Shown in pieces: positions 16,452 through 55,544 of a DNA stretch of 64,000 nt. Source of the stretch: a virus (Duplodnaviria; Heunggongvirae; Uroviricota; Caudoviricetes); the IMG/VR virus record IMGVR_UViG_2585427593_000001, positions 56,832 through 120,831 of that record. One strand, 5' to 3'. Each line of letters starts with the position of its first letter. The stretch's first letter is position 1. The notes beneath the pieces were generated by a model that made no database searches, had not been told where the DNA came from, and saw only the letters and a list, made by a program, of their open reading frames with translations. The position numbers and the translations under genes are program-made.

Positions 16452-16497
16452 CAATCCCTCGTCATTTGCGTTATAAAGTAAGTAAGCACTTACTTAG
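16452..16497 (+). promoter_or_regulatory. phage promoter (CAATCCCTC-N-GCGTTATAAAG) plus TAAGTAAGCACTTACTTAG hairpin
   Basis: Family consensus match. Confidence 0.6.
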
Positions 16498-16525
16498 TGT
16501 GACGCCTCTTCAAAGGAAGATCCTC

Positions 16526-16789
16526 ATGGAAGCAATCATCGCATACCTGCGCAAGATCGTTGGTCTCGAACTGACCATCGACCGTGTTGTCTCTCGTCAG
16601 TCCAAGGTCGTTCGCGACCTCGAGACTCTCGAAAAGGTCCACAAGGTTAAGGCCGACAAGGCAGACAAGAAGGCAACGGCCGCATGGAAGCGCGCCGAAG
16701 CTGCACGCCTGGAAGCCGCTGACGCAGCCGAACTCTCGAACAACTGGAAGAATTCCGGACTGATCCGGCCGACCCGCAAGGCCGCCTGA
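16526..16789 (+). CDS. hypothetical protein
   Basis: ATG 16526 follows the AAGGAAG RBS. The track start at 16466 lies inside the promoter hairpin. Confidence 0.45.
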   Translation: MEAIIAYLRKIVGLELTIDRVVSRQSKVVRDLETLEKVHKVKADKADKKATAAWKRAEAARLEAADAAELSNNWKNSGLIRPTRKAA

Positions 16790-16805
16790 TCCGACGGGAA
16801 TGCAT

Positions 16806-16857
16806 GCGATCCCATCATGTGATCGCTATAAGTAGATAGCTAATTAGCTAGATAGCT
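16806..16857 (+). promoter_or_regulatory. phage promoter (GCGATCCC-N-TCGCTATAAG) plus TAGCTA palindromic element
   Basis: Lies upstream of the SSB-like gene. Confidence 0.55.
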
Positions 16858-16906
16858 AAACGGCAAGTCTTAAGCACAAAGCACAAAGCACGAAGGACTA
16901 AAGCAT

Positions 16907-17980
16907 ATGGCTCTTAACCCCGAACTGAAGAAGATGGTCTCCGCTGCCAAGAACAAGTATTCTGGCGGAAGTGGCAAGACCGTAAAGCCCAAGGACGGTC
17001 GCAACACCTACCGTATCCTGGCCCCGACCTCCGCCCAGGCTCCCTGGGTTCCGGCTTCCGGCCAGTATTGGGCCGATCTCGGCGTTCACTGGATCAAGGC
17101 AGACAAGAACGGCAAGCCGCTCGTCGTCGTTGGCGACTGCGACACCGTTTACCAGCAGCCTTCTCCGCTGAACACGGCAATCGAAATGGCGATTGCCTCG
17201 GCAATGGACGAAGACTCCAAGGAACTCTACAACGAGTGGAAGGCCAAGAAGTCGGTCCTCCTTTGCGCTGTCGATTTCTCGGGCAACCTCGATGAAGTTG
17301 TTCCGCTCGAACTGACCGGCACGACCTTCGGCAAGGTCGCGGACCTCATCAACGTCTACGACGACGCTGGTAAGGACATCACCGACCCGCTCACCGGCGT
17401 TAACATCATCATCACGAAGACCGGCAAGGGTCTGAATACCAAGTATGACGTGATGGTCGACCCGGCACCGTCCAAGCCGCTCAGCGCAGACATTCTGACC
17501 CGCACCCCGGATCTGCACGCCTTCATCGCGCAGAACTTCTTCCGTGGTGAAGAGCAGAAGGCGCTGAACTGCATCGCGCAGATCGCCGGCATCGCTGTTC
17601 CGGCGCTGACTGGTCCGTCTGGCCCGGCTGGCGTTCGCACGCCGACTGCAGCACTCGCCTCCTCGGCTGCCTCCGTTGCCGGCGCGACGGTCGACAACTC
17701 TGCGGCTATCGCTGCTGAAGCCGCCCGCAAGGCAGCTGCAGAACAGGCTGCCGCAGCACAGGCCGCAGCTGCTGCCGCACAGGCTGCTCCGGTCGAAGAT
17801 CCGCTCGCTGCAAAGCGCGCTGAGATCCTGCGTCGCCAGCAGGAAGCAGAGGCTGAGCTTGCCGCTCTGTCCGCTGAACCGGCACCGGCTGCCGCAGCCG
17901 CAACGCCGGCCGCTGGCATCTCTTCGCTGCCTGTTTCCGAACAGGACGCGATCCTCGCTGAACTCGACAACCTCGTGTGA
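16907..17980 (+). CDS. putative ssDNA-binding protein (T4 gp32-like)
   Basis: The N-terminal region is loosely gp32-like (NTYRILAP). The C-terminus is an A/Q-rich low-complexity region with an acidic tail. Strong upstream promoter elements, a CA-repeat leader and a strong downstream terminator suggest high expression. Confidence 0.45.
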   Translation: MALNPELKKMVSAAKNKYSGGSGKTVKPKDGRNTYRILAPTSAQAPWVPASGQYWADLGVHWIKADKNGKPLVVVGDCDTVYQQPSPLNTAIEMAIASAMDEDSKELYNEWKAKKSVLLCAVDFSGNLDEVVPLELTGTTFGKVADLINVYDDAGKDITDPLTGVNIIITKTGKGLNTKYDVMVDPAPSKPLSADILTRTPDLHAFIAQNFFRGEEQKALNCIAQIAGIAVPALTGPSGPAGVRTPTAALASSAASVAGATVDNSAAIAAEAARKAAAEQAAAAQAAAAAAQAAPVEDPLAAKRAEILRRQQEAEAELAALSAEPAPAAAAATPAAGISSLPVSEQDAILAELDNLV

Positions 17981-18044
17981 AGCTCCCCGCCAGGCAGTTT
18001 CCCCTCCCCTGCCTGGTCGCCTCATCGTCGCGGATGAGGCTTAG

Positions 18045-18090
18045 CGACGACGCCGATTCCCGCCCCGGCGTCGTCGCCTTTCCTTTTGAG
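18045..18090 (+). terminator. rho-independent terminator (multi-hairpin) after the SSB-like gene
   Basis: The stem CGACGACGCC...GGCGTCGTCG is followed by CCTTTCCTTTTG. Confidence 0.6.
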
Positions 18091-18098
18091 AGGCTTTT

Positions 18099-19052
18099 AT
18101 GTCCAAGAATTACATGCTGATCGACGGCAACTCGCTCGGTCACTATTACAACAACGCCAAGCCGCTTCACATTGGCGAGTTCCAGGTTCAAGCCATTCAC
18201 GGCTTCCTGAAGGGCCTGCGTGCGCAGATCGCCATGTTCCAGAATTATCAGCCGGTCGTCCTCTGGGATGGCGCGTCGTGGCGCAAGCTCATGTTCGCTG
18301 CCTACAAGGACAACCGCGAGAAGCGCGAAACCAAGAACGAGATCAAGGTCCAGGACCAGAAGGACGCCTACAAGAAGCAGCAACCATATATTCGCAAGGC
18401 GCTGCGCTTCCTCGGCGTGCCCCAGGTCATGGCGCTCAACATGGAAGCCGATGATCTCGGCGCGATCCTAACCGACCGCTACACGAAGTCCGGCGCGAAC
18501 ATCATTCTCCTCACCGGAGATAAGGACTGGCTCCAGCTCGTCAGCCCCGGCGTCGTCTGGAAGGACTTTGTCAACGATCGGCTCGTGACGCATCGGAGCT
18601 TCAAGGAGTTCACCGGCGTCGACACCATCCGGCAGTTTGTCGAGGTCAAGGCGCTGGCCGGTGATATGGGCGACAACGTCGCAGGTGTCGGTGGCATCGG
18701 CCAGAAGGGCGCGGTCGACTTCATCAACCAGTATGGCTCGGTCTCGGCATTCACCAACGCCTGCATCCTCGAAAAGAGCATCGATCTCGCAAAGCTGCCC
18801 AAGAAGTATCGGGCGCTTGTCGATGACGAGGACAAGGCTATCACCTTTTCCCGCAACATCGATCTCATGGATCTTCGGACAACGGTGCGTCCCGCGCCCC
18901 AGGCGCTCGAGGTCGATAAGGGCGATCCCAGCAGGGAGAAGTTCCAGCAGTTCTGCGAGCTCCTCCTCTTTAAGTCGATCCTGAAGGAATTCGACAGCTG
19001 GATCTCCGTCTTCCCGGCTTTCCGTGAGCTGCCGCAGGCGCTTGCAGCCTAA
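18099..19052 (+). CDS. 5'-3' exonuclease / flap endonuclease (FEN, RNase H-like)
   Basis: LIDGNSL is the FEN N-terminal motif and TGDKDWLQLV is the FEN helical arch motif. Confidence 0.85.
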   Translation: MSKNYMLIDGNSLGHYYNNAKPLHIGEFQVQAIHGFLKGLRAQIAMFQNYQPVVLWDGASWRKLMFAAYKDNREKRETKNEIKVQDQKDAYKKQQPYIRKALRFLGVPQVMALNMEADDLGAILTDRYTKSGANIILLTGDKDWLQLVSPGVVWKDFVNDRLVTHRSFKEFTGVDTIRQFVEVKALAGDMGDNVAGVGGIGQKGAVDFINQYGSVSAFTNACILEKSIDLAKLPKKYRALVDDEDKAITFSRNIDLMDLRTTVRPAPQALEVDKGDPSREKFQQFCELLLFKSILKEFDSWISVFPAFRELPQALAA

Positions 19053-19071
19053 TCAACACGAAGGAGTAAAT

Positions 19072-20211: not shown

Positions 20212-20221
20212 ATGAGATGTT

Positions 20222-20260
20222 AGAAGGCGGCGCGGTAATTATTCGCCGCCTTCAACTTTC
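20222..20260 (+). terminator. putative terminator after the recombinase gene
   Basis: The stem GAAGGCGGCG/CGCCGCCTTC is followed by a weak T tract. Confidence 0.45.
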
Positions 20261-20272
20261 AGGAGTAATTGT

Positions 20273-20812: not shown

Positions 20813-20817
20813 TCTCT

Positions 20818-20869
20818 GCGTTCCCGTGCCCAGCTTGCTATAAGTATCGTGTAATCAATAGCAAGCTGG
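20818..20869 (+). promoter_or_regulatory. phage promoter embedded in a 12-bp-arm inverted repeat (CCCAGCTTGCTA/TAGCAAGCTGGG)
   Basis: GCGTTCCC-N-TTGCTATAAG; the inverted repeat is read directly from the sequence. Confidence 0.5.
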
Positions 20870-20876
20870 GCACTCA

Positions 20877-21744: not shown

Positions 21745-21762
21745 AAGTCCCGCGCAGAACCT

Positions 21763-21818
21763 GACGCATCCCAATGCGCGCTTCGCTATAAGCTAAGCAA
21801 TAAGTAATTGATTACTTA
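21763..21818 (+). promoter_or_regulatory. phage promoter plus hairpin upstream of sbcD
   Basis: GCATCCC-N-TCGCTATAAG followed by TAAGTAATTGATTACTTA. Confidence 0.6.
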
Positions 21819-21830
21819 AACGAGGTTACA

Positions 21831-26127: not shown

Positions 26128-26173
26128 GCGTTCCCTCGAAATCTGCGCTATAAAGTAAGTAAGCACTTATTTA
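26128..26173 (+). promoter_or_regulatory. phage promoter plus hairpin
   Basis: GCGTTCCCTC-N-GCGCTATAAAG followed by TAAGTAAGCACTTATTTAG. Confidence 0.6.
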
Positions 26174-27263: not shown

Positions 27264-27283
27264 GTAAGTAATCACTTACTTAT
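27264..27283 (+). promoter_or_regulatory. hairpin GTAAGTAATCACTTACTTAT preceded by TTGTCA and followed by CTATAG, upstream of nrdB
   Basis: A palindrome family member in an alternative arrangement. Confidence 0.4.
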
Positions 27284-30679: not shown

Positions 30680-30724
30680 GCGCTCCCTCAATGATTGCGC
30701 TATAAAGTAAGTAAGCACTTACTT
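30680..30724 (+). promoter_or_regulatory. phage promoter plus hairpin upstream of thyX
   Basis: GCGCTCCCTC-N-GCGCTATAAAG followed by TAAGTAAGCACTTACTT. Confidence 0.6.
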
Positions 30725-30741
30725 CAACTAAGGAAAACGGA

Positions 30742-32959: not shown

Positions 32960-32977
32960 ACTTCCCGCTCACAACCT

Positions 32978-33036
32978 GCTGCACTCCGAAAAGCGCAGCG
33001 CTATAAGTGAAAATGTAAGTAAGCACATACTTCACA
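32978..33036 (+). promoter_or_regulatory. phage promoter plus hairpin
   Basis: CTGCACTCC-N12-GCGCTATAAG followed by GTAAGTAAGCACATACTTCAC. Confidence 0.55.
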
Positions 33037-33708: not shown

Positions 33709-33785
33709 GGCCCCGGTAGCTTAGGCCAAAGCAGCACCCCCAGAAGGTGCTTACCGAGGTTGGACTCCTCGACGGGGCCACACCA
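33709..33785 (+). ncRNA. degenerate tRNA-like element
   Basis: A 7-bp acceptor (GGCCCCG/CGGGGCC) is followed by ACACCA. An anticodon-like arm (GCACC-CCCAGAA-GGTGC) and a T-like arm (CGAGG-TTGGACT-CCTCG) are present, but the T-loop lacks C56 and there is an extra nucleotide before the acceptor 3' strand. Confidence 0.25.
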
Positions 33786-34445: not shown

Positions 34446-34532
34446 GGTCTGGTAGCGAAGCGGTTGAACGCGCAGGACTGCAAATCCTGTTCCGAAAGGG
34501 CGTCGCAGGTTCGAATCCTGCCCAGACCTCCA
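34446..34532 (+). tRNA. type-II (long variable arm) tRNA with anticodon GCA, U73 and encoded CCA
   Basis: Hand-folded cloverleaf: acceptor GGTCTGG/CCAGACC; D-loop AAGCGGTTGAA; anticodon arm CAGGA-CTGCAAA-TCCTG; 15-nt variable arm; T-arm GCAGG-TTCGAAT-CCTGC; discriminator T followed by CCA. Confidence 0.55.
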
Positions 34533-34556
34533 ATCTTATTCCCGCGCACAACCTAC

Positions 34557-34606
34557 CGCACTCCGCGATTAGCTGCGCTATAAACGATAAGTAAGCAATT
34601 ACTTAG
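34557..34606 (+). promoter_or_regulatory. phage promoter plus hairpin upstream of the GHKL gene
   Basis: CCGCACTCC-N-GCGCTATAAAC followed by TAAGTAAGCAATTACTTAG. Confidence 0.6.
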
Positions 34607-37025: not shown

Positions 37026-38584
37026 GCAAGGTAAAGATCCTTGGCGCCATCGCATCGAATTCCGGCGTCACTCTCTATCTCAGTAATGGAGAGGAGATGA
37101 ACCTCAAGAAGGACACGCAGCGCACGAAGGACATTCTCGACCAGACGGTTGAGGCTCTCGCACGCGGCGAACACCTCGAAATCGATCTTTCGAGCCTGTC
37201 CATCGAAAAGACGATCGAGGAGAAGACCAACGGCGTCGTCAAGTTCGTCCGCGGCCGCTTCTCGCAGCTGAAGTCCATGTTCGGTGCCACGCCCACCGAG
37301 CCGAAGACGGTCACTGTCGTTCTCGGCAGCGTTCAGCGGGCACCGGATCCCGTCCAGGCTGCACCTGCAGCGCAGGTTCCTCCTCCGTTGCCGTTCAAGC
37401 CGGTGGAAGAACCCGAGCCGGTCGCGCATGAGTCGGAAGAACTGCACGCCGTCGTCAACGATAAGGTCATTCCGGGTGTCGAGGCACTCTCGCCTTACAT
37501 GGACGCAATCAATGCTGGCGAAGACGCTATCGGCTTTCAGAAGTTCATGGAGCGCATTGCGACCGTTATCGACACCCGCTCGCACTCGGTCAAGGAGCTG
37601 CTCAACTTCATGAGCAAGGGCGATCTGCCGATCGCTGACGACGGCTCGATCGTCGCCTACAAGGTTCTAAAGACGACCGGCAACAGCAAGGGCTTTGTCG
37701 ATTGCCACTCGGGCAAGGTAACGCAGAAGCTCGGCTCCTTCGTGCAGATGGACGAGAAGCTCGTCGATCCGAACCGGCGCAATGAATGCTCTACCGGCCT
37801 GCATATCGCGCGCCGCAAGTATCTCAGGAGCTTCAACGGCAATATCATCACGCTGGTCAAGGTTGCGCCTGAAGACGTGATTGCGGTCCCGCCTGGCGAG
37901 CCCGACAAGATGCGAGCGAAGGGCTATCATATTGTCGCGGTGCTTCCTTCTGATGTCCATCAGACGCTGCGCGATAACAAGCCGATGACCGGGCACGAAA
38001 AGGCGTCGAAGCTGCTCGCGGACGTGATCAAGGGCAATCACACGCCGATCCTCGAGATCGTCAACATCGGCAAGGCGATGGGCGGCGATGTTACCGTCAC
38101 GCCCGTCGAAGGTGCACAGAAGCTGCCGCGCGCTGCAGTCGGCACGTCCGGTGTTGCTAAGGCACTTGATGACCGTCCGGTCAACCCGAATGAGGTGAAG
38201 GCCGACGTGTCGATCCGCGAGCTGCGCAAGAAGGTCGACCAGGTCGAGACGACCAAGAAGCAAAAGGCCATTCAGAAGGCCGCACAGAGCGGTGATCTCG
38301 CGGCCGCTATCAGTCAGCCCGCAACCCCGGCTCCCGCGCCTGCGGCCAAGCCTGAGTCGAGGAAGGCTGCTGCGAAGTCAGTGAAGCCCGACGTGATCAA
38401 GATGGCGGCTACCTTCGCTTCCAAGGTCAATCCTCCTGAAAAGCCGCTGCCCGCAAAGCACGCCGCTGCACTGAAGCTGCATGGCGAAGGCAAGTCCAAC
38501 CGTCAGATCGAGGCCGAGCTGCATATCTGCCGCAAGACCCTCAAGAAGCTGTTCGACAAGAACGGTCTGAAGCCGAACGGCTGA
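37022..38584 (+). CDS. protein with a C-terminal LuxR/sigma-70 region-4-type HTH
   Basis: ATGA coupling to the GHKL gene. The C-terminal HTH reads GKSNRQIEAELHICRKTLKKL. An internal AAQSGDLAAAIS motif is present. Confidence 0.55.
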   Translation: MSKVKILGAIASNSGVTLYLSNGEEMNLKKDTQRTKDILDQTVEALARGEHLEIDLSSLSIEKTIEEKTNGVVKFVRGRFSQLKSMFGATPTEPKTVTVVLGSVQRAPDPVQAAPAAQVPPPLPFKPVEEPEPVAHESEELHAVVNDKVIPGVEALSPYMDAINAGEDAIGFQKFMERIATVIDTRSHSVKELLNFMSKGDLPIADDGSIVAYKVLKTTGNSKGFVDCHSGKVTQKLGSFVQMDEKLVDPNRRNECSTGLHIARRKYLRSFNGNIITLVKVAPEDVIAVPPGEPDKMRAKGYHIVAVLPSDVHQTLRDNKPMTGHEKASKLLADVIKGNHTPILEIVNIGKAMGGDVTVTPVEGAQKLPRAAVGTSGVAKALDDRPVNPNEVKADVSIRELRKKVDQVETTKKQKAIQKAAQSGDLAAAISQPATPAPAPAAKPESRKAAAKSVKPDVIKMAATFASKVNPPEKPLPAKHAAALKLHGEGKSNRQIEAELHICRKTLKKLFDKNGLKPNG

Positions 38585-38615: not shown

Positions 38616-38663
38616 GTCTCCCGTCGCATTGCGCGCTATAACTTAAGTAAGCACTTACTTTAA
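38616..38663 (+). promoter_or_regulatory. phage promoter plus hairpin upstream of the Rnl-like gene
   Basis: TCTCCC-N-GCGCGCTATAAC followed by TAAGTAAGCACTTACTTTA. Confidence 0.6.
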
Positions 38664-39299: not shown

Positions 39300-39980
39300 A
39301 TGACCCTGATCGTCCACAAGCACGAACTGATCCAGCAGCCGTCGCCGGCTCCCGCTGATCGCGGCCCCTACGTTCACAGCGCCAACGGTCGCAAGATCTA
39401 TCCGTTCGATCCGCGGCCGGAGGAGATCTCGATCAACGTGATCGCCCATCACCTGGCGAACAACAATCGCTGGAACGGCGCAACGCAGCACCGGCGTTTC
39501 AAGACGCGCATCTCCTTCTCCGTTGCCGAGCATTCGGTTCTCGTCGCCAAGTATGTCGTCGAGGAGCTGAAGCTGCCGGAATACGAGCTGGAAGCCCTGC
39601 TTCATGACGCGCCGGAATACCTGTTCGGCGATATGATCCGTCCGTTCAAGCATCATCCGAGCATTCACCCGATCATCAAGCCGATCGAGGATCGCGCCGA
39701 AGAGGTAATTGCCAAGCGGTTCGGTCTGCTCTTCCCGCTGCCGAAGGAAATCAAGATCGCCGACGAGGCTGTCTGCGCCGCGGAACAGCAGCAGATCGTG
39801 CCGGAAGATGCCCGCGAGCAGTGGCGCGCAATCGATACCAGCCGCATTGCGCCCTACGAAATCGAGATGATGGATGCCTACAGCGCCAAGGAATATTTCC
39901 TGATGGCCTATGAAAGCGCCATTCGTCGCCGGCCTGATTTCCAGGCACTGCCGTCTTCTGTTGAGATATATTCTAAGTAA
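39300..39980 (+). CDS. HD-domain phosphohydrolase
   Basis: The H...HD motif is present (VAEHSV...LLHDAPE). Confidence 0.65.
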   Translation: MTLIVHKHELIQQPSPAPADRGPYVHSANGRKIYPFDPRPEEISINVIAHHLANNNRWNGATQHRRFKTRISFSVAEHSVLVAKYVVEELKLPEYELEALLHDAPEYLFGDMIRPFKHHPSIHPIIKPIEDRAEEVIAKRFGLLFPLPKEIKIADEAVCAAEQQQIVPEDAREQWRAIDTSRIAPYEIEMMDAYSAKEYFLMAYESAIRRRPDFQALPSSVEIYSK

Positions 39981-39992
39981 TCAATTACTTAG
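39975..39992 (+). promoter_or_regulatory. 5' UTR hairpin AAGTAATCAATTACTTAGGAGG fused to the RBS
   Basis: Palindrome family member. Confidence 0.4.
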
Positions 39993-42605: not shown

Positions 42606-42663
42606 CTCGGCACGCTACGCAGGGCGGGCGACGAGTCCCGATCTCGTCGCCCGCTCATTACCT

Positions 42664-42714
42664 GACGCATCCCAATCTCAATCGCGCTACAAGCTAAGTA
42701 AGACATTACTTAGT
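42664..42714 (+). promoter_or_regulatory. phage promoter plus hairpin
   Basis: GCATCCC-N-GCGCTACAAG followed by TAAGTAAGACATTACTTAG. Confidence 0.55.
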
Positions 42715-44142: not shown

Positions 44143-45618
44143 TTGCCGCGTTTCGACACGTTCTGGAAAGAAAAGGACATTCTAGTGAGCAATATTTCGG
44201 GCAAGACGCTCGTGGCGTGGGGCTTGGAGCCTGGCGCCTGGTTCAAGGAAGCATTGCCGGTCGCCCGTCAGATGCGCGAAGACGGCAAGACGGACAAGCA
44301 GATCATCGATCACCTGTTCACGATGCGCGCGACTGTCGCCGTCGATGAAGGTGTGCCGCTGCGCACCAACAACATTCCGTTCGGCCAGTTCATCGAGCCG
44401 GAAGGTGACGACGAGAAGGCAAATGTCGCCTCGGTTCTCGCTCACATGGATGCGCTGATGCGCGTTCCGACGATCGAGCGCGGCGCAGTCATGCCGGATG
44501 CGTGCCCTTCCGGCTCGGCGCTCGGCACCATCCCTGTCGGTGGTGTGGTCGCGACCAAGAACGCGATCCATCCGGGCTTCCACTCCGCGGATATCTGCTG
44601 CTCGATGGCGATCTCCGTCTTCAAGCGCGACACGCCGGTTGATTACGTCCTCGACATTGCGATGAAGGCGTCTCACTTCGGCGTCGGCAAGCGCACGATG
44701 TCGGAAGTGCGCCAGTATAAGGATCTGGTGCAGCTGGTGAACGGCTTCGAAGCCAATCCCTTCCTGAAGGGGCTGGAAGACTACGCTCTCCAGCACTTCA
44801 TGACGCAGGGCGACGGCAACCACTTCTTCTATGTCGGGCAGCTCGAAAGCACCGGCCAGATGGCGATCGTCACGCACCACGGCTCTCGCGGTCTGGGTGG
44901 TCAGCTCTACAAGCGCGGCAAGGCAGCGGCCGAGCGTCACACGCGCATCGTCGCAGGGCGGATCCCGCTGCACAATGCCTGGATCGAGGCAGATAGCCAG
45001 GTCGGCCAGGACTATTGGCAGGCGCTGCAGGCAATCCGCCTGTGGACGAAGATGAACCACTTTGCGATCCACAACCTGGTCGCCAAGCGCCTCGGCAATC
45101 AGATCGTCGGGCAGTTCTGGAACGAGCACAATTTCGTCTTCCAGCGCTCCGACGGCCTGTTCTACCACGCCAAGGGCGCGACGCCTTCCTTCAATGGCTT
45201 CTCGAAGGATGACCAGGGCCTGACGCTGATCCCGATGAACATGGCGCAGCCGATCCTGATCGCCGAGCATGCCAATAACGAAGACGCGCTCGGCTTCGCG
45301 CCGCACGGCGCCGGCCGCAATCTCTCCCGCACCGGGCATATCAAGCGCCTGATGGAAGAGTTCGGCGACACGCGCGGCCTGGGACCGAATGCGATCAAGG
45401 CGATCATGGAGCGTGAGACCAAGGGTCTCGACGTTCGCTTCTACACCGGCGACCCTGACGTTTCCGAGCTGCCGAGCGCCTACAAGAACGCTGACCAGGT
45501 CCAGGCTCAGATCGAGAAGTTCGGTCTCGCCAAGATCGCCGATCGCGTTCTGCCGCGTGGTTCGATCATGGCCGGCGAAATGAAGTGGCACAAGCCCAAG
45601 AAGTCGAAGGTCGCTTAA
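44143..45618 (+). CDS. rtcB: RtcB-family RNA ligase
   Basis: RtcB metal-ligand and GMP-His blocks are present (MPDACPSGSALGTIPVGG, GDGNHFF, YHAKGATP). Confidence 0.8.
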   Translation: MPRFDTFWKEKDILVSNISGKTLVAWGLEPGAWFKEALPVARQMREDGKTDKQIIDHLFTMRATVAVDEGVPLRTNNIPFGQFIEPEGDDEKANVASVLAHMDALMRVPTIERGAVMPDACPSGSALGTIPVGGVVATKNAIHPGFHSADICCSMAISVFKRDTPVDYVLDIAMKASHFGVGKRTMSEVRQYKDLVQLVNGFEANPFLKGLEDYALQHFMTQGDGNHFFYVGQLESTGQMAIVTHHGSRGLGGQLYKRGKAAAERHTRIVAGRIPLHNAWIEADSQVGQDYWQALQAIRLWTKMNHFAIHNLVAKRLGNQIVGQFWNEHNFVFQRSDGLFYHAKGATPSFNGFSKDDQGLTLIPMNMAQPILIAEHANNEDALGFAPHGAGRNLSRTGHIKRLMEEFGDTRGLGPNAIKAIMERETKGLDVRFYTGDPDVSELPSAYKNADQVQAQIEKFGLAKIADRVLPRGSIMAGEMKWHKPKKSKVA

Positions 45619-45685
45619 ACCCTCCCGCATTCCAAAAGCAACTGCGCGATACTTAATTATCGACGCAAAATGAAAGGATTAGCAG

Positions 45686-47296
45686 ATGACTGCTGTTTCC
45701 AGTGTGACCTCGCACGCCTATACGGGCTCTTCATCTTTCGGGCCTTTTGCCGACGCTGTGCGGAAGCGCTTCGCCTCTGCCATTGAAGGCGGCCAGCCGC
45801 TCTTTACCTCTGACGCTACCGACCTTTGGGATGAATATCTCAACGGCTTCGATGATCCGATCGAGCGCCAGAACCATAACTGCAATTGCTGCCGGAGCTT
45901 CATTCGTCATTACGGCGGGCTTCTCGTCATCGATGACAAGGGCATTCAGCGCTCGGCAATCTGGGACGAGGATCTCGCGCCGTCCTTCTTCAAGAAGGCT
46001 GCAGCAAACCTGAAGAAGGCGGCCGTGCGGGCAAACGTCAACGGTGTCTTCATTTCGTCCGACGCGCAGTGGGGCACTCCGAAGACCGGACCCTGGACCC
46101 ATTTCTCGCTGGCGCAGAGCAATGAACGTGTCCACCGCGACCGCGTCAACTCCGCGTTCCAGGTGATGGCGCAGAAGAAGCAGGACTTCGGAACGCTGAA
46201 GCATGGCCTCGCCGACTACTCTCGCGACGTTGTCGCCTCTGCGGTGAACCTGCTCGAGTCCGAGGCGCTGTATCGTTCGGAAAAGGTCATCGGGCCGGCG
46301 AAGTTCCTGCTCGCGATCCACGACGCCTACAAGGGCCTCTACAAGCACCGCTATGCCAACGTGATCTGGAAGGCAGTCGCAGCCGCCCCGGTCGGCTTCT
46401 GCACGCCGCGTTCGTCCATGATCGGCACGCTTCTCGATGACCTGAAGGAAGACATGAGCGTCGAGCTGGTGAAGAGCCGCTTCAAGACGAAGATGGATCC
46501 GCTCCAGTATCAGCGCCCGCAGGCCGCACCCTCTGCAGGAAACATCGCCGTCGCCGAGAAGCTGGTCGAAAAGCTCGGCATTCAGAACTCGCTCAAGCGG
46601 CGTTTCGCCCGTCTCGATGAGATCACGACCATTTGGACGCCGACGGCAGCTGCCAGCGCGCCGGCGACGGACGGCGTGTTCAGTCATCTGACGCCGAAGA
46701 ATACGCCGGCGAAGTCCGATGCGCCGGTCGCGCCGATCCAGAATATCACCTGGGAGAAGTTCCTGCGGACGGTTGTTCCGAAGGCGCTGGCGATGGAAGT
46801 GCAGATGCGTGCCGGGCACGGCGCATTCGCTGCACTGGTGACGGCGGAGGATCCCGACGCCCCTCCGATCCTGCAGTGGGACCGCGAGGAGAAGCGCAAT
46901 CCGTTCTCCTGGTATCTCTACGGAGGTGGCTCGACTCCTTCCCATTGGGGCCTGCCGACTTCCGGCTGGGTCAAGGTCAACGCCCTCACCTTGAAGCCGT
47001 CCGCCTGGGACCGTGATCCCAACACTCACGACAACCAGGGCAACGGCGCGCTCTTCATCCTCGAAGGTGCTCGCGACCATCGCACGCCTGGCCTGTGCCT
47101 CTTCCCGGAGATCCTCAAGTCGAGCCTTCACTCGATCCGCTCGACGATCGAGGCATTCTCCCACCGCGGGCAGATGTCCGGTCAGAATGAAGCGTCCGCT
47201 TGCGGGCTGCTCTGCGACCAGAAGGGCTTGGGCTATGTGGTCCGCGTGACGACCGATCTCGGCCGCGCCGACTACCGCATCGATCGTTGGGATTGA
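45686..47296 (+). CDS. hypothetical 536-aa protein downstream of rtcB
   Basis: A long ORF with phage codon usage and a CNCC cluster. No recognised domain. Confidence 0.55.
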   Translation: MTAVSSVTSHAYTGSSSFGPFADAVRKRFASAIEGGQPLFTSDATDLWDEYLNGFDDPIERQNHNCNCCRSFIRHYGGLLVIDDKGIQRSAIWDEDLAPSFFKKAAANLKKAAVRANVNGVFISSDAQWGTPKTGPWTHFSLAQSNERVHRDRVNSAFQVMAQKKQDFGTLKHGLADYSRDVVASAVNLLESEALYRSEKVIGPAKFLLAIHDAYKGLYKHRYANVIWKAVAAAPVGFCTPRSSMIGTLLDDLKEDMSVELVKSRFKTKMDPLQYQRPQAAPSAGNIAVAEKLVEKLGIQNSLKRRFARLDEITTIWTPTAAASAPATDGVFSHLTPKNTPAKSDAPVAPIQNITWEKFLRTVVPKALAMEVQMRAGHGAFAALVTAEDPDAPPILQWDREEKRNPFSWYLYGGGSTPSHWGLPTSGWVKVNALTLKPSAWDRDPNTHDNQGNGALFILEGARDHRTPGLCLFPEILKSSLHSIRSTIEAFSHRGQMSGQNEASACGLLCDQKGLGYVVRVTTDLGRADYRIDRWD

Positions 47297-47326
47297 TATC
47301 CCTGCCTGGAAGCGCTCATCACCTGG

Positions 47327-47373
47327 GCGCTTCCAGCTCTGTCTGCACTATAAAGTAAGTAATCAATTACTTA
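47327..47373 (+). promoter_or_regulatory. phage promoter plus hairpin upstream of the NAD salvage genes
   Basis: GCACTATAAAG followed by TAAGTAATCAATTACTTAG. Confidence 0.55.
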
Positions 47374-47382
47374 GAGGACAAC

Positions 47383-48611: not shown

Positions 48612-48613
48612 CC

Positions 48614-50065: not shown

Positions 50066-50079
50066 GCCGCTCACTCCCT

Positions 50080-50124
50080 CCCGCACTCCGTCGCGTTCAG
50101 CGATATAAGTAATTCATTACTTAG
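50080..50124 (+). promoter_or_regulatory. phage promoter plus hairpin upstream of the membrane/SPFH genes
   Basis: CCGCACTCC-N-GCGATATAAG followed by TAAGTAATTCATTACTTAG. Confidence 0.55.
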
Positions 50125-50141
50125 CTAGAGAGGAAAGCTAA

Positions 50142-50285
50142 TGCGTCCCGAAGATATCAACACCATCAACCCGGACGGCAAGGCGTTCAACGGCAACAAG
50201 GGCGCGCTCATCGTTGCTGTCGTGATCATCGCCGGCGTCCTGATGGGCCTCGCAGTCCATGTCGTGAAGGCGGCCTACAGCTGAT
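50142..50285 (+). CDS. small membrane protein (47 aa)
   Basis: A single transmembrane helix. Under the track threshold. Confidence 0.3.
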
Positions 50286-50398
50286 GGCAAAGGCAATCGG
50301 CGTCTGCGTCATCGCAATCATCATCGCAATGGGCGTCGTCAAGGCGCTCGAACTGCTCCGCAAGCGCGCGGGCAACTCTGAAGGAGAGAAGAAGTAAA
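50285..50398 (+). CDS. small membrane protein (37 aa)
   Basis: A single transmembrane helix, coupled to the neighbouring genes. Confidence 0.25.
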
Positions 50399-51252: not shown

Positions 51253-51276
51253 CCGCGGATCCCGCTTAAATATAGA

Positions 51277-51306
51277 AAAGGCGCCCCATTGGCGCCTTTT
51301 CTTGTT
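51277..51306. terminator. bidirectional rho-independent terminator
   Basis: AAAAGGCGCCCCATTGGCGCCTTTTCTTG lies between the convergent SPFH and secreted-protein genes. Confidence 0.7.
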
Positions 51307-51332
51307 AGAACCGTCGAAGCCGGGAACGGGCG

Positions 51333-51821
51333 TTATGTTTCGAGAATGGTCTTGACCGCATCCAGTTTCCCGCTCACATTTTCCTTCACCTGGATCAGTG
51401 TGCCATAGTTCAATGGGTTGATCCCGTGTGAGCCTCCTGAACAATTCTCATGCATCATCGCCACCATCTTATCCAACCCGTCTTTCGCAGTGTCGATCTG
51501 TTTCGCAGCGTTTGGCGTCTTGCCTTTGGCTACGGCTACTCTTAGGTCGACGAGTTGCTTGTTGACTTCGTTGCTCCGTTTTACAAAAGCGTCATAGGCT
51601 TCCGGTGGCCGTCCGTTGGCGCCACCAGGGCAATTGTTGGTCATCAGCGCCACCATCGCCTGCGCTTGAGTGATTGCCTCTCCTAGGAGTCTGTCGATTG
51701 CGGAGTTCGTGTCGGCGAAAGAGACGCCCGCGGCCAGCGGATTGAGCAGAAGACCTGCACACAGCGTCGCTACAGTCGCGGACTGCCGCAAGCGAGCCGG
51801 AATTCTTCCGAAAGTGAACAT
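51333..51821 (-). CDS. secreted hypothetical protein with duplicated NCxGG motifs
   Basis: A signal peptide is present. It lies on the minus strand at the edge of a low-GC island. Confidence 0.45.
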   Translation of the reverse strand: MFTFGRIPARLRQSATVATLCAGLLLNPLAAGVSFADTNSAIDRLLGEAITQAQAMVALMTNNCPGGANGRPPEAYDAFVKRSNEVNKQLVDLRVAVAKGKTPNAAKQIDTAKDGLDKMVAMMHENCSGGSHGINPLNYGTLIQVKENVSGKLDAVKTILET

Positions 51822-52360
51822 TGTGGAATCTCCTCTCAATTTCGATTGCAAAAGCACTGGCCCGCCAGTGATGACAGGTCGATCAACTTAAAATTGACTT
51901 AAACGACTAGGGATTGCAAGCGTTAGAGTTGTTTATCTTTCGGAGTAATTCTTAGGGTAGTGTATGACCCGATGCAGATAGCCTGCCGACTTCCGAATAG
52001 ACGTCTGCTATAAACGCAGAATCGAGAGCGAAAGCAGCAAGCGCCGAGACCAGCCGGCGCGCCCGTGAGGATGGGCCGCACGGGCGCAGGCGAGTGCCTC
52101 GCTCTTGATACGGAGGATTGCTATGTGGTGGCTACCATTTAGCGTCATGCTGCAGATACGAAAGACCCGGACGAGCTGGTCAATAACCGTCCGGGTCAAT
52201 ATCGTAGGATAGCATAAGAGCTGGCAGGAGGTTCGCGCTTCCTGTCAGCACTCCGGTTATATTATAGCATCAACGGCCATTTTCAAGCCGTCGATCGCCT
52301 CCCGCATTCCATTTTGCAATTTGTGATTATCACTCTGTCAGCAATACGACGGAGAAAAAT

Positions 52361-52678
52361 ATGTATTTTTACAGCGACACGTCGCCTAGAGGTCCATCTG
52401 ATATCAATGTATGGAAGATGAATGGATCCAAATGCTATCTCACCCACTTCTCGAATTACCTGTTTCTAATGTTCGTTTCGAAGCGGGGCACGCGCGCCGA
52501 ACGGGCATCAGTTGAAAAAGAGATCCTCGTTTGCGAGAAGAAGCTCGCCTTCTGGCAGCGGCATCCCCGATTTGACGCCGAATATGTTCAGAAGGAAAAG
52601 GAGAAGATGATCAAGGCTTGGCGTCAGGAGCCTGGCGCCGCCGCGGCAACTGCCTCGGGCACGATCGCGGCGCCGTAA
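52361..52678 (+). CDS. hypothetical protein (AT-rich)
   Basis: An ORF in the accessory region. Confidence 0.3.
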   Translation: MYFYSDTSPRGPSDINVWKMNGSKCYLTHFSNYLFLMFVSKRGTRAERASVEKEILVCEKKLAFWQRHPRFDAEYVQKEKEKMIKAWRQEPGAAAATASGTIAAP

Positions 52679-52839
52679 AAGAGCGCCTCTTTGCCGACCT
52701 GGACCAGGTCGCTCTCTTTTTGATTGACGAAGTCGTCCTTGTTAAAAGGTAGACCGTTACCGACCATGTAGACTTCAATTGCGGAGATAATAGCGAGCCG
52801 GATTGCGCCGGCGTGCTGGACGAATTCCATATGCGTCAT
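52624..52839 (-). CDS. hypothetical protein
   Basis: An ORF convergent with the 52361 ORF. Confidence 0.25.
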   Translation of the reverse strand: MTHMEFVQHAGAIRLAIISAIEVYMVGNGLPFNKDDFVNQKESDLVQVGKEALFYGAAIVPEAVAAAAPGS

Positions 52840-53221
52840 GCCTTTGTTCCTGTTACGTTCAATAGGATATAATTCCTACCCGCGAGGCATAGCGGTGGTC
52901 AACCGGATTCTTAATCAAGTTGTAAGGATCGAATTGCCTGCTGCTAACCAAGCAGCGAGCGTGTATATTTAAACGTGTGCAGATGCAACACTCGGGATCA
53001 AAAATCGATAGCTAGGTAGCTAATAGGCTTCCCAAAATCTGACTATTGAATTTGCTTAGACTTTACCTATTGGGCATTAGATTCCAATGGTTTCAGACAT
53101 GCGTTTGCAGTCAGGAGCGCGTCATCAGCTAAGAAAATCAGTGGGTTCCTCCTTTTAGCTAGAACTCGCTTAAAACGAGTGCCCGAAAGTTTACCGAAAT
53201 CCAACTAACAACGGGTATAAA

Positions 53222-53467
53222 ATGCACCTTGCCTACCTCGCTGTCAGCGTCATCCTTCTAGGAGGCGTAAAGGAACCGGTTCCGCAAATCATCCCGCAGG
53301 GTTTTTACGACGAAAAGGGATGCGATCTGTGGAAGAGGAATATGGAAAGCGCCAAAGTGCCTTTCGTTGATCCGGGCTCGTCTCGGCCGGTTCTCTCCCG
53401 GCAGTTCGTCTGCCAGCCCGTCGACCTGGACGACCTGCAGAAAATGCTCGATCGCGCCCGCGGATAA
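53222..53467 (+). CDS. small hypothetical protein with an N-terminal hydrophobic segment
   Basis: ORF. Confidence 0.3.
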   Translation: MHLAYLAVSVILLGGVKEPVPQIIPQGFYDEKGCDLWKRNMESAKVPFVDPGSSRPVLSRQFVCQPVDLDDLQKMLDRARG

Positions 53468-53507
53468 ACATATGGCCCGTCAAGCGGGCCATCGTCATTT
53501 CTGGTCT

Positions 53508-53726
53508 TTATCGTTTGGTGTCGATCGGAAAGATCTCTGCGCCGAGGAAGTAAGCCTCTCGCAGGAACTGATCCAGGTCGACTTCGCTCTGATCGAGGAA
53601 TCTTGCAACATCGAATGTAAGTTGTTGGTCTTTAAAATGGGTTTCCACGGCATTCAATACTCGTGCCTTTAACCCAGTCAATTGCCCGTCAAACTCCGCC
53701 CTATTCATTGGTTTCTCACTTTCCAT
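53508..53726 (-). CDS. hypothetical protein
   Basis: ORF. Confidence 0.3.
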   Translation of the reverse strand: MESEKPMNRAEFDGQLTGLKARVLNAVETHFKDQQLTFDVARFLDQSEVDLDQFLREAYFLGAEIFPIDTKR

Positions 53727-53934
53727 TTACGCGGATCGCTCTATCTACGACCTGCCCTATATCAGGACTTAAGTAAGGTCATACTGAATATTTACTCTTT
53801 ATCAACCCTCAGTTTCGCCAAAATTTGCGTGAAAGGGTTAACGCGGAGCGTGTGCGCTTCCTTTCGGTTCCTGCTATAAATGATAGAGACTAAAGAAACT
53901 GACAAACGTTTAAATTGTCCAACCGGAGCGTCAC

Positions 53935-54249
53935 ATGACCAATATTTTCACCACTTCTAACCCGATCGATGCCGGCGCTGCGTTGATTGGCAAGGGCGAT
54001 GTCGGCCTTATTCTGAAGGCCGACGGCAGCTGCCAGGCCCTGACCTTTGGCTATGACCGCGAGCGGCTGCTGCGGTCTGATGACGCACAGACCGACGAGG
54101 ATCGCGCCATGCTCGAGCAGGGCAAGAAGCTGTTCGCCCTCGCGTTTGCTGCCGGCCACCCGAAGCTGCTCAAGGTATTGATGGATATAGCGTCTGACCC
54201 CGATGTAGTCGACTTCGACACCCTGACCGCAACGAAGACCTGCCACTGA
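53935..54249 (+). CDS. hypothetical protein
   Basis: ORF with an RBS. Confidence 0.4.
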   Translation: MTNIFTTSNPIDAGAALIGKGDVGLILKADGSCQALTFGYDRERLLRSDDAQTDEDRAMLEQGKKLFALAFAAGHPKLLKVLMDIASDPDVVDFDTLTATKTCH

Positions 54250-54254
54250 CGCAA

Positions 54255-54512
54255 ATGGCTACGCCCTTCACCAATCGGCAGCGCCTTGAGTTCGCTGCCG
54301 CGGGCTTTCTGATGGAGATGCGCAAGCAATGGGCGCAACTCCATCCCGAGGATCCCTGCCCCATTAAAAATCTCGCCGACTACCCTGGAAACGAGCGGTC
54401 GGCGCTCATGTCGGCTGTTCAGAAGGCGATCCAGTATGCCGGGTCAGACACCGATGTTGCCTTTGCAGCCTGGGTTGCAAAGCGGGAAGAAGAGGCGGCG
54501 CGCACGACCTGA
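54255..54512 (+). CDS. hypothetical protein
   Basis: ORF. Confidence 0.4.
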   Translation: MATPFTNRQRLEFAAAGFLMEMRKQWAQLHPEDPCPIKNLADYPGNERSALMSAVQKAIQYAGSDTDVAFAAWVAKREEEAARTT

Positions 54513-54560
54513 TGTTCTCCCAAGTTTTTGTGCGCTATAACGTAAGTAAGCAATTACTTA
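54513..54560 (+). promoter_or_regulatory. phage promoter plus hairpin
   Basis: GTTCTCCC-N-GCGCTATAAC followed by TAAGTAAGCAATTACTTAG. Confidence 0.6.
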
Positions 54561-54572
54561 GGAGACGCGAAA

Positions 54573-54887
54573 ATGATCCTGCCTATGCTCATGAATATCG
54601 CTCTCGGCGCCGGAAAGCTCGAGGTCGAGGCCGATGCTAAGAACTATCGCCTTGTCACGCGCGCCTTCGGCACGACGATCACGCTCGCCAAGCTGGACAA
54701 GGAAGCGGTCTATCAGCTGACCCGCACGCCGGACATGCCGGCAACGCGCGACGAGGCGGCCAAGGCATTCGAGAAGCACCAGAAGGATGAGGGCAAGGCG
54801 CTGGCCGACGATCCGGTTCCGCTGCCTACCCCGCGCCCTGAGCGCCGCAAGCCGCAGCTCTCGATCATTCAAGGCGGTGCGGCATGA
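54573..54887 (+). CDS. hypothetical protein
   Basis: A promoter and hairpin lie upstream. Confidence 0.45.
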   Translation: MILPMLMNIALGAGKLEVEADAKNYRLVTRAFGTTITLAKLDKEAVYQLTRTPDMPATRDEAAKAFEKHQKDEGKALADDPVPLPTPRPERRKPQLSIIQGGAA

Positions 54888-55117
54888 GCGCCCGCCTGGT
54901 CAAGAAGGTCATGGCCCTGGCGAAGGATAGGCATCACAAGCCCGTGGTCATCGGCATGCGTTCCGGGCGCACCTATGTCGGCGATCTGGTTAACGCCGAC
55001 ATCAGCAACGGCATCGTCGAGATCACGGTGAAGGACGGCGTCAGCAACAAGAGTTGGACCGCCCTAATCGACATCGACCTCATCGAAGCCGTCGAGCCGC
55101 GCTGGGAGATCACCTGA
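54884..55117 (+). CDS. hypothetical protein
   Basis: ATGA coupling to the upstream ORF. Confidence 0.45.
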   Translation: MSARLVKKVMALAKDRHHKPVVIGMRSGRTYVGDLVNADISNGIVEITVKDGVSNKSWTALIDIDLIEAVEPRWEIT

Positions 55118-55464
55118 TGACCGAGGAAGAAAAGAAAGTCCGTATCCGTGAGCTGAACGATGCGCTGCGCTTCCACGGCATCGTGCGCAACGGCAAGATC
55201 ATCCTCACCGGTGATCTCGCCTATGAGACCGACGACGCCGAGAAGATGACCAAGATCATCAAGGCGCTGCGTGCCTTCAACGATTTCAATGAGGACAACG
55301 ACCCGCACGGCGAGCACGATTGCGCCAAGTTCACCGTCGATGGCGAGGAGTTCATCTTCAAGGTCGACTATTACGCCTTGGATGAGGAGACCCTCTCGGA
55401 GCATCCGGAGGATCCCAACGTCACCATCAGGGTAATGTCGGTGTTCTACGCACGCGACTATTGA
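55117..55464 (+). CDS. hypothetical protein
   Basis: ATG overlaps the upstream stop. Confidence 0.45.
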   Translation: MTEEEKKVRIRELNDALRFHGIVRNGKIILTGDLAYETDDAEKMTKIIKALRAFNDFNEDNDPHGEHDCAKFTVDGEEFIFKVDYYALDEETLSEHPEDPNVTIRVMSVFYARDY

Positions 55465-55493
55465 CGACCGTCAGGAAGGCGCTCACTTCCGAG

Positions 55494-55544
55494 CGCACTC
55501 CTGCAAGTTCTGCGCTATAAACAATAAGTAAGAGCTTACTTAGA
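55494..55544 (+). promoter_or_regulatory. phage promoter plus hairpin
   Basis: GCGCACTCC-N-GCGCTATAAAC followed by TAAGTAAGAGCTTACTTAG. Confidence 0.6.

Follow-up and report, generated by a model that had tools for sequence, protein, structure and literature searches.

A phage-specific promoter family and a dispersed palindrome, most likely a repressor-binding site, in a Rhizobium phage-plasmid

The DNA analysed here is a window of 64,000 nucleotides (nt), positions 56,832 to 120,831 of IMG/VR record IMGVR_UViG_2585427593_000001, and it belongs to a Rhizobium siphophage, or phage-plasmid. It carries replication, nucleotide-metabolism and accessory genes; the structural module lies outside it. 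Two elements recur along the window, a promoter that we call class P and an 18-bp palindrome, and two genes encode their candidate partners. At 10466-11110, on the plus strand, lies the gene for a phage sigma factor of 214 amino acids (aa), the candidate reader of class P. At 5985-6377, on the same strand and adjoining repC, lies the gene for an Xre-type helix-turn-helix (HTH) protein of 130 aa, a candidate repressor that matches Pfam HTH_3 and repressor and regulator families of PHROGs. Both belong to a conserved gene order: repC, a small ribbon-helix-helix gene, the HTH gene, a gene for a 75-aa protein, a cobT-like gene, a MoxR-like gene, sigma and dnaE.

The window shares about 94% identity with V1VFA-S, B1VFA and RHph_X66 and, over conserved genes, about 78% with RHEph10. 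These belong to a phage-plasmid family of about 115-122 kb with repC and parAB, found in Rhizobium, Sinorhizobium/Ensifer, Agrobacterium, Shinella, Pararhizobium and Methylobacterium. Plasmids of 115-120 kb in Rhizobium, Sinorhizobium, Shinella, Pararhizobium and Methylobacterium are related replicons, and many family members were isolated as plaque-forming phages. The announcement of the B1VFA and V1VFA-S genomes noted parA, parB and repC and proposed a phage-plasmid lifestyle (PMC12509600), and the plasmid-like prophage pLM21S1 was not induced by mitomycin C (PMC5537653). Because related replicons are plasmids in sequenced strains and the element has repC and parAB, we take plasmid lysogeny to be real (PMC12509600, PMC5537653). 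Neither genome paper mentions promoters or operators of this family, we found no account of its regulation, and a literature search with the motif strings returned irrelevant papers only. We compared the window with the complete genome of V1VFA-S, which we used for whole-genome counts; with RHEph10, assembled from three loci (L125-L127); with RHph_N1_15 (L134); and with six distant loci (L128-L133) fetched around sigma homologs, whose sigma factors are 43-78% identical.

Class P is a phage-specific promoter family. The original prediction had counted about 20 copies, and about 23 stand in the window, all co-oriented with the genes, an enrichment far above chance with a marked strand bias. With at most one mismatch, TGCGCTATAA has 13 matches in the window where 1.9 would be expected. 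Scoring with a position weight matrix derived from the aligned sites gives 25 plus-strand matches of at least 10 bits, about 22 of which precede genes; 15 sites score 20-33 bits (12-30 bits in leave-one-out scoring), compared with three weak matches on the minus strand and one to seven over both strands of shuffled sequence. The sites sit 12-75 nt 5' of start codons, on the coding strand throughout. They include members at 434, 5917, 15835, 57507, 62551 and 62993, beyond the range covered earlier. The -45 box described below had also been missed.

We read the promoter anatomy from 15 sites aligned on the -10 element. The -10 block is (T)GCGCTATAA(A/G), with TATAA invariant. The -30 box, GCAYTCC, ends 14 nt before TATAA; its invariant CC lies 10 nt 5' of GCGC, at about -28/-27 when TATAAN is counted as -12 to -7. 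The spacer from the -30 box to the -10 block, previously put at about 12 nt, is 10 nt long and nearly devoid of information. A further block, the -45 box CGCTCACAACCT at about -48 to -37, is found at 10 of 22 sites with at most three mismatches, mostly in the right half of the window. Each promoter consists of two or three conserved blocks with uninformative gaps between them, reaching to about -50.

Rhizobial sigma-70 promoters have the consensus CTTGAC-N17-CTATAT (PMC2873474). The class P -10 element matches the rhizobial one, and the host -35 is absent: compared with its core, TTGAC, two to four of the five positions mismatch, and three or four do so at most sites. The bipartite layout with an uninformative 10-nt gap points to a promoter read by a sigma factor and not to a contiguous T7-type promoter. 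Promoters of extracytoplasmic function (ECF) sigma factors carry a GGAAC-like -35 and a CGTC-like -10 element, 16-17 nt apart. A likeness to them had been suggested, and it stands as far as the bipartite, sigma-like layout goes; the ECF elements themselves are not matched, since the upstream box is GCAYTCC and the -10 block, GCGCTATAA, is like that of the primary sigma factor.

The palindrome is 18 bp long, TAAGTAA-N4-TTACTTA, with 7-nt arms and a centre of exactly 4 nt. It had been placed in another register, TAAGTAAG-N4-TTACTTAG, which has no match even at two mismatches; taken singly, TAAGTAAG has 17 matches in the window (0.21 expected) and TTACTTAG has 11 (0.25 expected). The window holds 21 copies with at most two mismatches. 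V1VFA-S carries about 40 genome-wide, including in the structural module (35-65 kb), which has no class P promoter; its class P matches are confined to 66-118 kb and 1-13.5 kb. A scan of IMG/VR for TAAGTAA-N4-TTACTTA returned mostly single chance matches on unrelated contigs.

A palindrome was said to follow the promoter as a rule, and only 12 of the about 23 class P promoters carry one. Since no more than these 12 carry it, and since it spans the whole V1VFA-S genome, the palindrome is an element separate from the promoter. The distance from the -10 hexamer (TATAAN) to the palindrome is 1 nt at seven promoters, 3 nt at two, 8 nt at two and -4 nt at one, and the palindrome usually ends 9-29 nt before the start codon. 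Its right arm, described as often overlapping the Shine-Dalgarno sequence, directly abuts it at three sites only (39974, 47356 and 54543). By a crude call of open reading frames (ORFs), 15 of 19 window palindromes do not lie wholly within an ORF, though 90% of the sequence is coding, and the remaining four fall in over-extended N-termini. The palindrome is thus scarce inside coding sequence, as predicted; this does not separate an RNA element from a DNA site, because a DNA operator predicts the same. Orthologous promoter sites are kept in relatives with sigma factors only 43-78% identical, between diverged flanks, and where promoter and palindrome stand together at orthologous positions, they form a conserved island across lineages with sigma factors 51-78% identical.

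The palindrome had been read as a conserved 5' hairpin acting at the RNA level. Several observations speak against this. The predicted RNA stability of the window 18-mers is only -1.8 to -8.4 kcal/mol, a weak stem, compared with -10.6 +/- 2.6 kcal/mol for random 7-bp stems of the window's composition. Over 83 sites from V1VFA-S and L128-L133, deviations of the arms from the consensus are compensated at two positions, give G-U pairs at 12 and break the pair at 68. In RHEph10 we find 39 orthologously placed sites, before the 75-aa gene, cobT, moxR, nrdB, rIIA and others, with the same 7+4+7 layout, a different and degenerate half-site of T[C/A]A[G/A]T[C/A]A and a conserved ATAT centre. At the three variable positions the arms of these sites show Watson-Crick complementarity in 13, 15 and 19 of 39, against 19.0, 19.1 and 22.8 expected if the arms varied independently. 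Full pairing occurs at three of the 39, and the median predicted stability is -1.3 kcal/mol; each half fits a protein-like half-site consensus, and the halves do not fit each other. The outer positions of the 4-nt centre are ambiguous as a test of pairing, as G...C and T...A are common and T...C, G...A and G...T occur too. No Rfam family matches at the palindromes.

Position tells a similar story. If transcription starts about 7 nt after the hexamer, as standard sigma geometry would place it, +1 would fall within or beyond the left arm at 10 of the 12 promoters, and the transcripts of those 10 could not hold the hairpin. In the relatives, the palindrome also fills the 17-nt spacer of host-type promoters, at 37207, 40998 and 54235 in V1VFA-S and at 2749, 13521 and 112699 in RHEph10. 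These late promoters read TTGCAA-N17-TACAAT, TTGATA-N17-TATTAT and TTGNNN-N17-TACCAT, and the register within the spacer is identical in the two phages although the palindrome sequence differs. A palindrome in such a spacer lies upstream of any transcript, in a classic operator position. The copies without a promoter, which had been offered as an argument for an RNA role, point the opposite way, to an independent element found genome-wide. Collectively, the absent covariation, the very low stability and the copies upstream of the start in promoter spacers indicate that the palindrome is most likely a DNA binding site of a phage repressor and not an RNA structure.

A hairpin of a different kind stands in the leader of the MoxR-like gene, 20 nt 3' of the palindrome at 9113. 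This element (9133-9149, GCGC-aacgcgaaa-GCGC) shows compensatory changes, to GCGA...TCGC in L128 and GTGC...GCAC in L133, and so serves as an internal control; judged by these changes, it is a genuine conserved RNA structure.

A phage sigma factor had been predicted at 10466-11110, and its identity is confirmed by a match to Pfam Sigma70_r2 (30.9 bits; cut-off 24). Residues 37-77 align with regions 2.1-2.4 of E. coli sigma-70, including the FSTY...R..I.R pattern. The Pfam scan of the protein found no region 4, and a PDB sequence search with it found nothing. Its AlphaFold model, with a predicted local distance difference test (pLDDT) score of 78, begins with a domain of three helices, which a disordered linker joins to a helical domain at the C-terminus (residues 120-213, pLDDT about 80-90). 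The best Foldseek matches to this model are all sigma factors, over the full length and with probabilities of 0.9-0.98, at E-values of about 4e-3 and low TM-scores. Homologs form 40 clusters, many on contigs of about 115-122 kb. The gene is present and syntenic in all relatives examined, where it co-occurs with class P promoters. Given a conserved sigma gene and no other obvious promoter set, the phage sigma factor is the simpler and most plausible reader of class P.

As for the palindrome, the most likely candidate for a dimeric protein bound to it, judged from its sequence and conservation, is the HTH protein at 5985-6377, which is conserved in every relative examined. In most lineages with TAAGTAA-type sites the predicted recognition helix of this protein is N(P/Q)NMITM, with diverged variants in L132 and L133; in RHEph10 and RHph_N1_15 it is QSNMVTM. 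RHph_X66 has the TAAGTAA site type and RHph_N1_15 the RHEph10 type, and the host of both is R. phaseoli. Two site types in phages of one host species argue that the binder is phage-encoded, and a host protein is ruled out by the same pair. We also considered the ribbon-helix-helix protein beside repC and rejected it, as its DNA-contacting beta-strand does not track the site type: the strand of L128 resembles that of RHEph10, yet the L128 sites are of the TAAGTAA type. In RHph_N1_15 the HTH ortholog (3734-4135 of L134) is annotated as 91 aa, with its start inside the recognition helix and stop codons in the frame upstream; the repressor of this plaque-forming isolate may be disrupted.

Taken together, we consider it probable that class P promoters are read by the phage sigma factor and are overlaid by the palindromic operator of a phage-encoded dimeric repressor. 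In such a scheme, host core RNA polymerase with the phage sigma factor (10466-11110) would read class P. In the plasmid-prophage state, HTH dimers would hold about 40 operators per genome. At 12 class P promoters the operator would span about -5 to +13, on the predicted starts, and block initiation; in the structural module of relatives, an operator in the 17-nt spacer of a host-type promoter would occlude it; and operators in very short intergenic gaps (39974, 6728 and 390) could act as roadblocks to elongation. Lytic genes would in this way be kept silent throughout the genome for as long as the plasmid prophage is maintained. Derepression would let host polymerase transcribe the sigma operon, and the sigma factor made from it would in turn fire the about 23 class P promoters of the window. 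A bolder version, in which one palindrome silences in a stoperator-like manner through three geometries (at the start site, in the spacer of a host promoter and as a roadblock in 20-30 nt gaps), alongside a tripartite promoter of about 45 bp and a minimal, highly divergent sigma factor that retains the host -10 and exchanges the -35 for -30 and -45 boxes, strikes us as possible though somewhat doubtful.

Several points weigh against this proposal. A class P promoter (5900-5925) stands before the HTH gene itself, and if class P depends on the phage sigma factor, the synthesis of a repressor during lysogeny is hard to explain; a host-type -35, TTGACT, within the palindrome variant at 5851 might give the gene a second promoter, with a poor -10. 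Scans of the window with an E. coli-type sigma-70 consensus showed no enrichment and no early promoter for the sigma operon, and we identified no host-type early promoter for that operon. The correlation between helix and site type that favours the HTH protein as the binder goes back to one evolutionary change. The placement of +1 assumes canonical sigma geometry. In the window's own lineage the arms are nearly always fully complementary, so a weak hairpin could form where the site is transcribed whole, at the two promoters with 8-nt spacing and at the promoter-less copies. The outer positions of the 4-nt centre lean somewhat towards G...C or T...A.

How do other explanations compare? The complementary arms, their distance of 9-29 nt from start codons, the 8-nt spacing at 21783 and 32998, which would put the whole palindrome at the transcript 5' end, and the promoter-less intergenic copies, which would be transcribed whole, are what one would expect of a 5' RNA hairpin that accompanies each promoter and protects the transcript end, serves as a processing site or controls translation. 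With 68 broken positions against two compensated ones, it is the arm sequence and not just the pairing that is conserved; the stems are about the weakest possible for 7 bp in a genome of 59% GC, the RHEph10 orthologs are non-complementary (median -1.3 kcal/mol), the relatives' spacer sites lie upstream of +1, Rfam gives no match, and the real hairpin in the MoxR leader, 20 nt away, does covary. We regard the hairpin as very unlikely. A protein might instead bind the palindrome as a regulator of lytic timing, a Cro-like shut-off or a middle-to-late switch, and not as a repressor of lysogeny. This would suit an HTH gene with a class P promoter and no palindrome over its start, the many plaque-forming relatives and the failure of mitomycin C to induce pLM21S1 (PMC5537653). 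Sites also occupy late-module promoter spacers, which suggests global silencing, and the documented plasmid-prophage state needs a repressor, for which we saw no other candidate near repC (PMC5537653); a timing role therefore seems to us quite improbable. The same cassettes could be mainly recombination junctions for gene shuffling, with regulation secondary. Of 28 breakpoints between the window and V1VFA-S, eight lie no more than 30 nt from a cassette, where chance would place 1.4, and a 536-aa ORF (45686-47296) is bracketed by two cassettes; this proximity suggests cassette-mediated gene shuffling, for which the PeSL cassettes are a precedent (PMC2839356). The random null spans all DNA, while breakpoints and cassettes both prefer intergenic positions, and cassettes are kept before core genes across deep divergence, a sign of regulatory selection with shuffling more likely a by-product. 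As the main function of the cassettes, shuffling is highly improbable.

The promoter, too, could be read otherwise. The host sigma-70 holoenzyme might be redirected by a phage activator through the -30 and -45 boxes, a sigma appropriation of the kind that MotA and AsiA carry out at T4 middle promoters, with the phage sigma factor serving another promoter set. Class P has a host-like -10, its -35 is replaced near -30 and its C-rich -45 box resembles a protein site; in addition, the HTH gene's own class P promoter could then fire without the phage sigma factor. Among about 30 proteins scanned with Pfam or PHROGs, with most small ORFs outside the scan, there was no MotA or AsiA homolog, and a conserved sigma gene that has no other obvious promoter set offers a simpler reader. 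We judge an activator unlikely. The resemblance of CTATA to T7 and SP6 promoters is all that favours a single-subunit polymerase that starts right after TATA and leaves a hairpin at every 5' end. Bipartite conservation with a 10-nt uninformative gap, extending to -50, is at odds with such a promoter. We detected an RNA polymerase domain in none of the large ORFs tested in the window or V1VFA-S, two of them having no domain match at all (unassigned ORFs include 45686-47296 and 60669-62516), and no polymerase is annotated in V1VFA-S or RHEph10. The large proteins are a CobT-like protein of 765 aa, a MoxR ATPase of 431 aa, rIIA (801 aa) and rIIB (520 aa), and a 1205-aa protein of V1VFA-S is a tail-like beta-helix. 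We therefore set the T7/SP6 idea aside as exceedingly improbable.

The individual class P sites, all on the plus strand, differ in strength and in what surrounds them. The leftmost (417-442, GCGTTCC-N10-TCGCTATAA, 24.9 bits) has no palindrome 3' of it; the palindrome at 390 lies 5'. The promoter of the HTH gene (5900-5925, 18.5 bits) has no palindrome over its predicted start, an arrangement repeated in L128, L130, L131, L132 and L133. A weaker site at 15818-15843 (15.4 bits) also lacks a palindrome. At 16451-16496, promoter (16451-16476, 29.3 bits) and palindrome (16479-16496, no mismatch) are conserved in an ortholog alignment across five lineages. Similar pairs stand at 26128-26173 (promoter 26128-26153, 33.0 bits; palindrome 26156-26173, one mismatch), 30680-30725 (30680-30705, 30.4 bits; 30708-30725, one mismatch) and 38616-38661 (38616-38641, 24.3 bits; 38644-38661, one mismatch).

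Other promoters carry the -45 box as well as a palindrome. They lie at 21749-21818 (promoter with -45 box 21749-21791, 26.5 bits, two mismatches in the -45 box; palindrome 21801-21818, none), at 32964-33033 (32964-33006, 27.6 bits, with a perfect -45 box; degenerate palindrome 33016-33033, two mismatches) and at 34541-34605 (34541-34583, 28.5 bits; palindrome 34588-34605), before a gene whose identity as rIIA is taken from the RHEph10 annotation. Further to the right they lie at 42650-42712 (42650-42692, 22.2 bits; palindrome 42695-42712), 47311-47373 (47311-47353, 20.3 bits; palindrome 47356-47373), 54498-54560 (54498-54540, 22.8 bits; palindrome 54543-54560) and 55478-55542 (55478-55520, 30.9 bits; palindrome 55525-55542). 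At 50066-50123 (50066-50108, 28.4 bits) the palindrome (50106-50123) overlaps the -10 element. A degenerate promoter with a -45 box and no palindrome (45610-45652, 14.4 bits) precedes the 536-aa ORF. This ORF has no Pfam match and is absent from V1VFA-S, where 45624-47307 is a gap in the alignment.

Three sites near the right end of the window form a sub-variant with a GCTAAAAC-type -10 (57507, 62551 and 62993), which never occurs with a palindrome and is clustered, lying at 6.6-13.5 kb in V1VFA-S; it may be a separately timed promoter class. The first (57474-57516) has -45 and -30 boxes and a -10 of CTGTTAAAAC, and its V1VFA-S ortholog scores 10.1 bits. The others have a -10 of GAGCTAAAAC (62534-62559, 18.0 bits) and, with a perfect -45 box (no mismatch), of GCGCTAAAAC (62959-63001, 21.7 bits). 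Two weak class P-like matches are doubtful: no ORF of at least 40 aa follows the one at 51988-52013 (13.7 bits), and the one at 53854-53879 (14.1 bits) is present in V1VFA-S too. The region around them, 51300-54300, has a GC content of about 50%, compared with 59%, and its small genes lie on both strands; it matches the ends of the V1VFA-S record, the direct terminal repeat region (PMC12509600).

Two promoters stand beside repeats of another kind. The promoter of a gp32-like single-stranded DNA-binding protein (SSB) gene (16806-16831, 26.7 bits) is followed by a different repeat and not by the TAAGTAA palindrome. The 75-nt SSB leader (16833-16906) opens with TAGATAGCTAATTAGCTAGATAGCTA (16833-16858) and contains tandem AAGCAC/CAAAG repeats (16872-16897), with similar repeats in every relative (L128-L133 and RHEph10). 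The leader of T4 gene 32 is an autogenous translational operator, and the SSB-leader repeats may, by analogy, be another. Class P at 20818-20843 (17.1 bits) lies inside a separate 16-bp inverted repeat, GTGCCCAGCTTGCTAT ... ATAGCAAGCTGGGCAC (20826-20841 and 20858-20873), that spans its spacer and -10, is found in V1VFA-S too and is probably the site of a different regulator. Two tRNA genes occupy 33709-33781 and 34446-34532, a tRNA-Cys(GCA) of 87 nt (Rfam and ARAGORN) and a tRNA-Leu(CAG) (ARAGORN only); the rIIA class P promoter begins directly after tRNA-Cys.

Nine palindromes have no promoter of their own. Five had been reported and all are real (6452, 6728, 9113, 27265 and 39974); to these we add 390, 5851, 60603 and a doubtful copy at 53770. 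The palindrome at 390-407 has one mismatch and begins with the TAA that ends the ORF at 33-392. The variant at 5851-5868, TAAGTAA-ctgt-TGACTTA, lies 50-65 nt 5' of the HTH gene's -10 and is kept in all lineages. Another variant, with the right arm TGACTTA (6452-6469), lies between the HTH-gene terminator (6409-6432) and the 75-aa gene and has orthologs. At 6728-6745 a perfect copy (no mismatch) stands 20 nt 5' of the cobT-like gene, which comes second in the operon that includes sigma; this copy has a positional ortholog in RHEph10 at 35957. The copy 5' of the MoxR-like gene (9113-9130) has, in relatives, a -30 box, GCATCCC, 10 nt upstream, which places its left arm where the -10 element would be. 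Perfect copies also stand 5' of the ribonucleotide reductase beta gene (27265-27282; positional ortholog in RHEph10 at 57396) and of a 615-aa ORF (60603-60620). The copy at 39974-39991 lies in an intergenic gap of about 20 nt, overlaps the upstream stop codon, abuts GGAGG and has a degenerate class P promoter just 5'. The doubtful copy at 53770-53787 has two mismatches.

Apparent minus-strand promoters at 9136 and 27292 were rejected; they have no -30 box and score at most 12 bits, and their -10 is probably a by-product of the palindrome flank. Between two plus-strand genes, 9071-9095 forms a hairpin with a T-run on the minus strand only. This minus-strand terminator lies about 60 nt 3' of a minus-strand GCGCTATAA that overlaps the palindrome (9113-9137; no -30 box, 12.3 bits), and the arrangement at 9071-9137 could yield a short antisense RNA or insulate against antisense transcription. 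In RHEph10, some palindromes (57396, 63891 and 104326) are flanked by extra inverted repeats, for example GCCTATGC...GCATAGGC, and one copy, AGAGTGC...GCACTCT followed by a T-run, resembles a terminator built around the site.

These data offer a testable regulatory map: a promoter consensus, a candidate sigma factor, an operator of about 40 copies per genome and a candidate repressor, of which the RHEph10 group offers a natural variant of different specificity. The map could be used to annotate phage-plasmids, to predict how the rhizobiophages that affect legume inoculants fall into immunity groups, and as a source of a compact orthogonal promoter/repressor pair for alphaproteobacterial genetics. 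It introduces no new principle, as repressors with dispersed operators and cascades of phage sigma factors are each familiar. What is well supported is a conventional architecture, a phage sigma regulon with a multi-operator repressor regulon, in a widespread and uncharacterised phage-plasmid family.

Several known systems share parts of this architecture. The PeSL cassettes of T4-type phages combine an early promoter with a stem-loop (PMC2839356). Like them, the cassettes here are short, repeated, intergenic units of promoter and palindrome tied to insertion and deletion junctions. The PeSL stem-loop, however, is a working terminator and its promoter is host sigma-70-like, whereas the palindrome here, 3' of a phage-type promoter, lacks a T-run and is too weak a stem to end transcription. 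Phage specificity factors such as T4 gp55 and SPO1 gp28 and gp33/34 direct host core polymerase to a repeated consensus. Among the phage sigma cascades known to us, GCAYTCC-N10-GCGCTATAA, with or without CGCTCACAACCT, matches none, and the sigma factor bears only slight similarity to those already known. The middle promoters that T4 MotA and AsiA activate have a host-type -10 and a replacement box near -30. Class P matches this geometry, a resemblance of layout only.

For the palindrome, the closest architectural match known to us is phiC31 of Streptomyces, in which near-identical, non-host-like early promoters and conserved inverted-repeat operators, bound by the repressor, recur in many intergenic regions. 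The sequences, host and repressor family differ, and phiC31 integrates instead of forming a plasmid prophage. P1 is a phage-plasmid whose C1 repressor acts at about 22 dispersed, asymmetric 17-bp operators and controls many lytic functions (PMC8546580). It shares with the present system a phage-plasmid lifestyle and repressor sites dispersed genome-wide, and differs in the asymmetry of its site, where an 18-bp palindrome here implies a symmetric dimer. To our knowledge, P1 late promoters carry no C1 operators, a further difference, as the palindrome here is also found in the structural module of relatives.

Mycobacteriophage L5 and its Cluster A relatives carry an asymmetric 13-mer in more than 20 copies, both at promoters and in short gaps between genes, where a block to initiation or elongation has been proposed (PMC9283540), and Cluster A repressor specificity varies between lineages (PMC6550527). 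More than 20 copies of one short site at promoters and short gaps, and site types specific to lineages, are common to both systems. The L5 sites are bound by a monomer in one orientation, whereas those here are palindromic with a fixed 4-nt centre, and the host and phage family are unrelated. The present sites thus show the features of a multi-operator regulon, with at least 20 copies, overlap with promoters at a repressing position (on the predicted starts) and a sequence that is lineage-specific and host-independent; they depart from L5 and P1 in being palindromic where those sites are asymmetric and bound to one orientation. The system works like the L5 and P1 regulons but belongs to neither family of proteins and sites.

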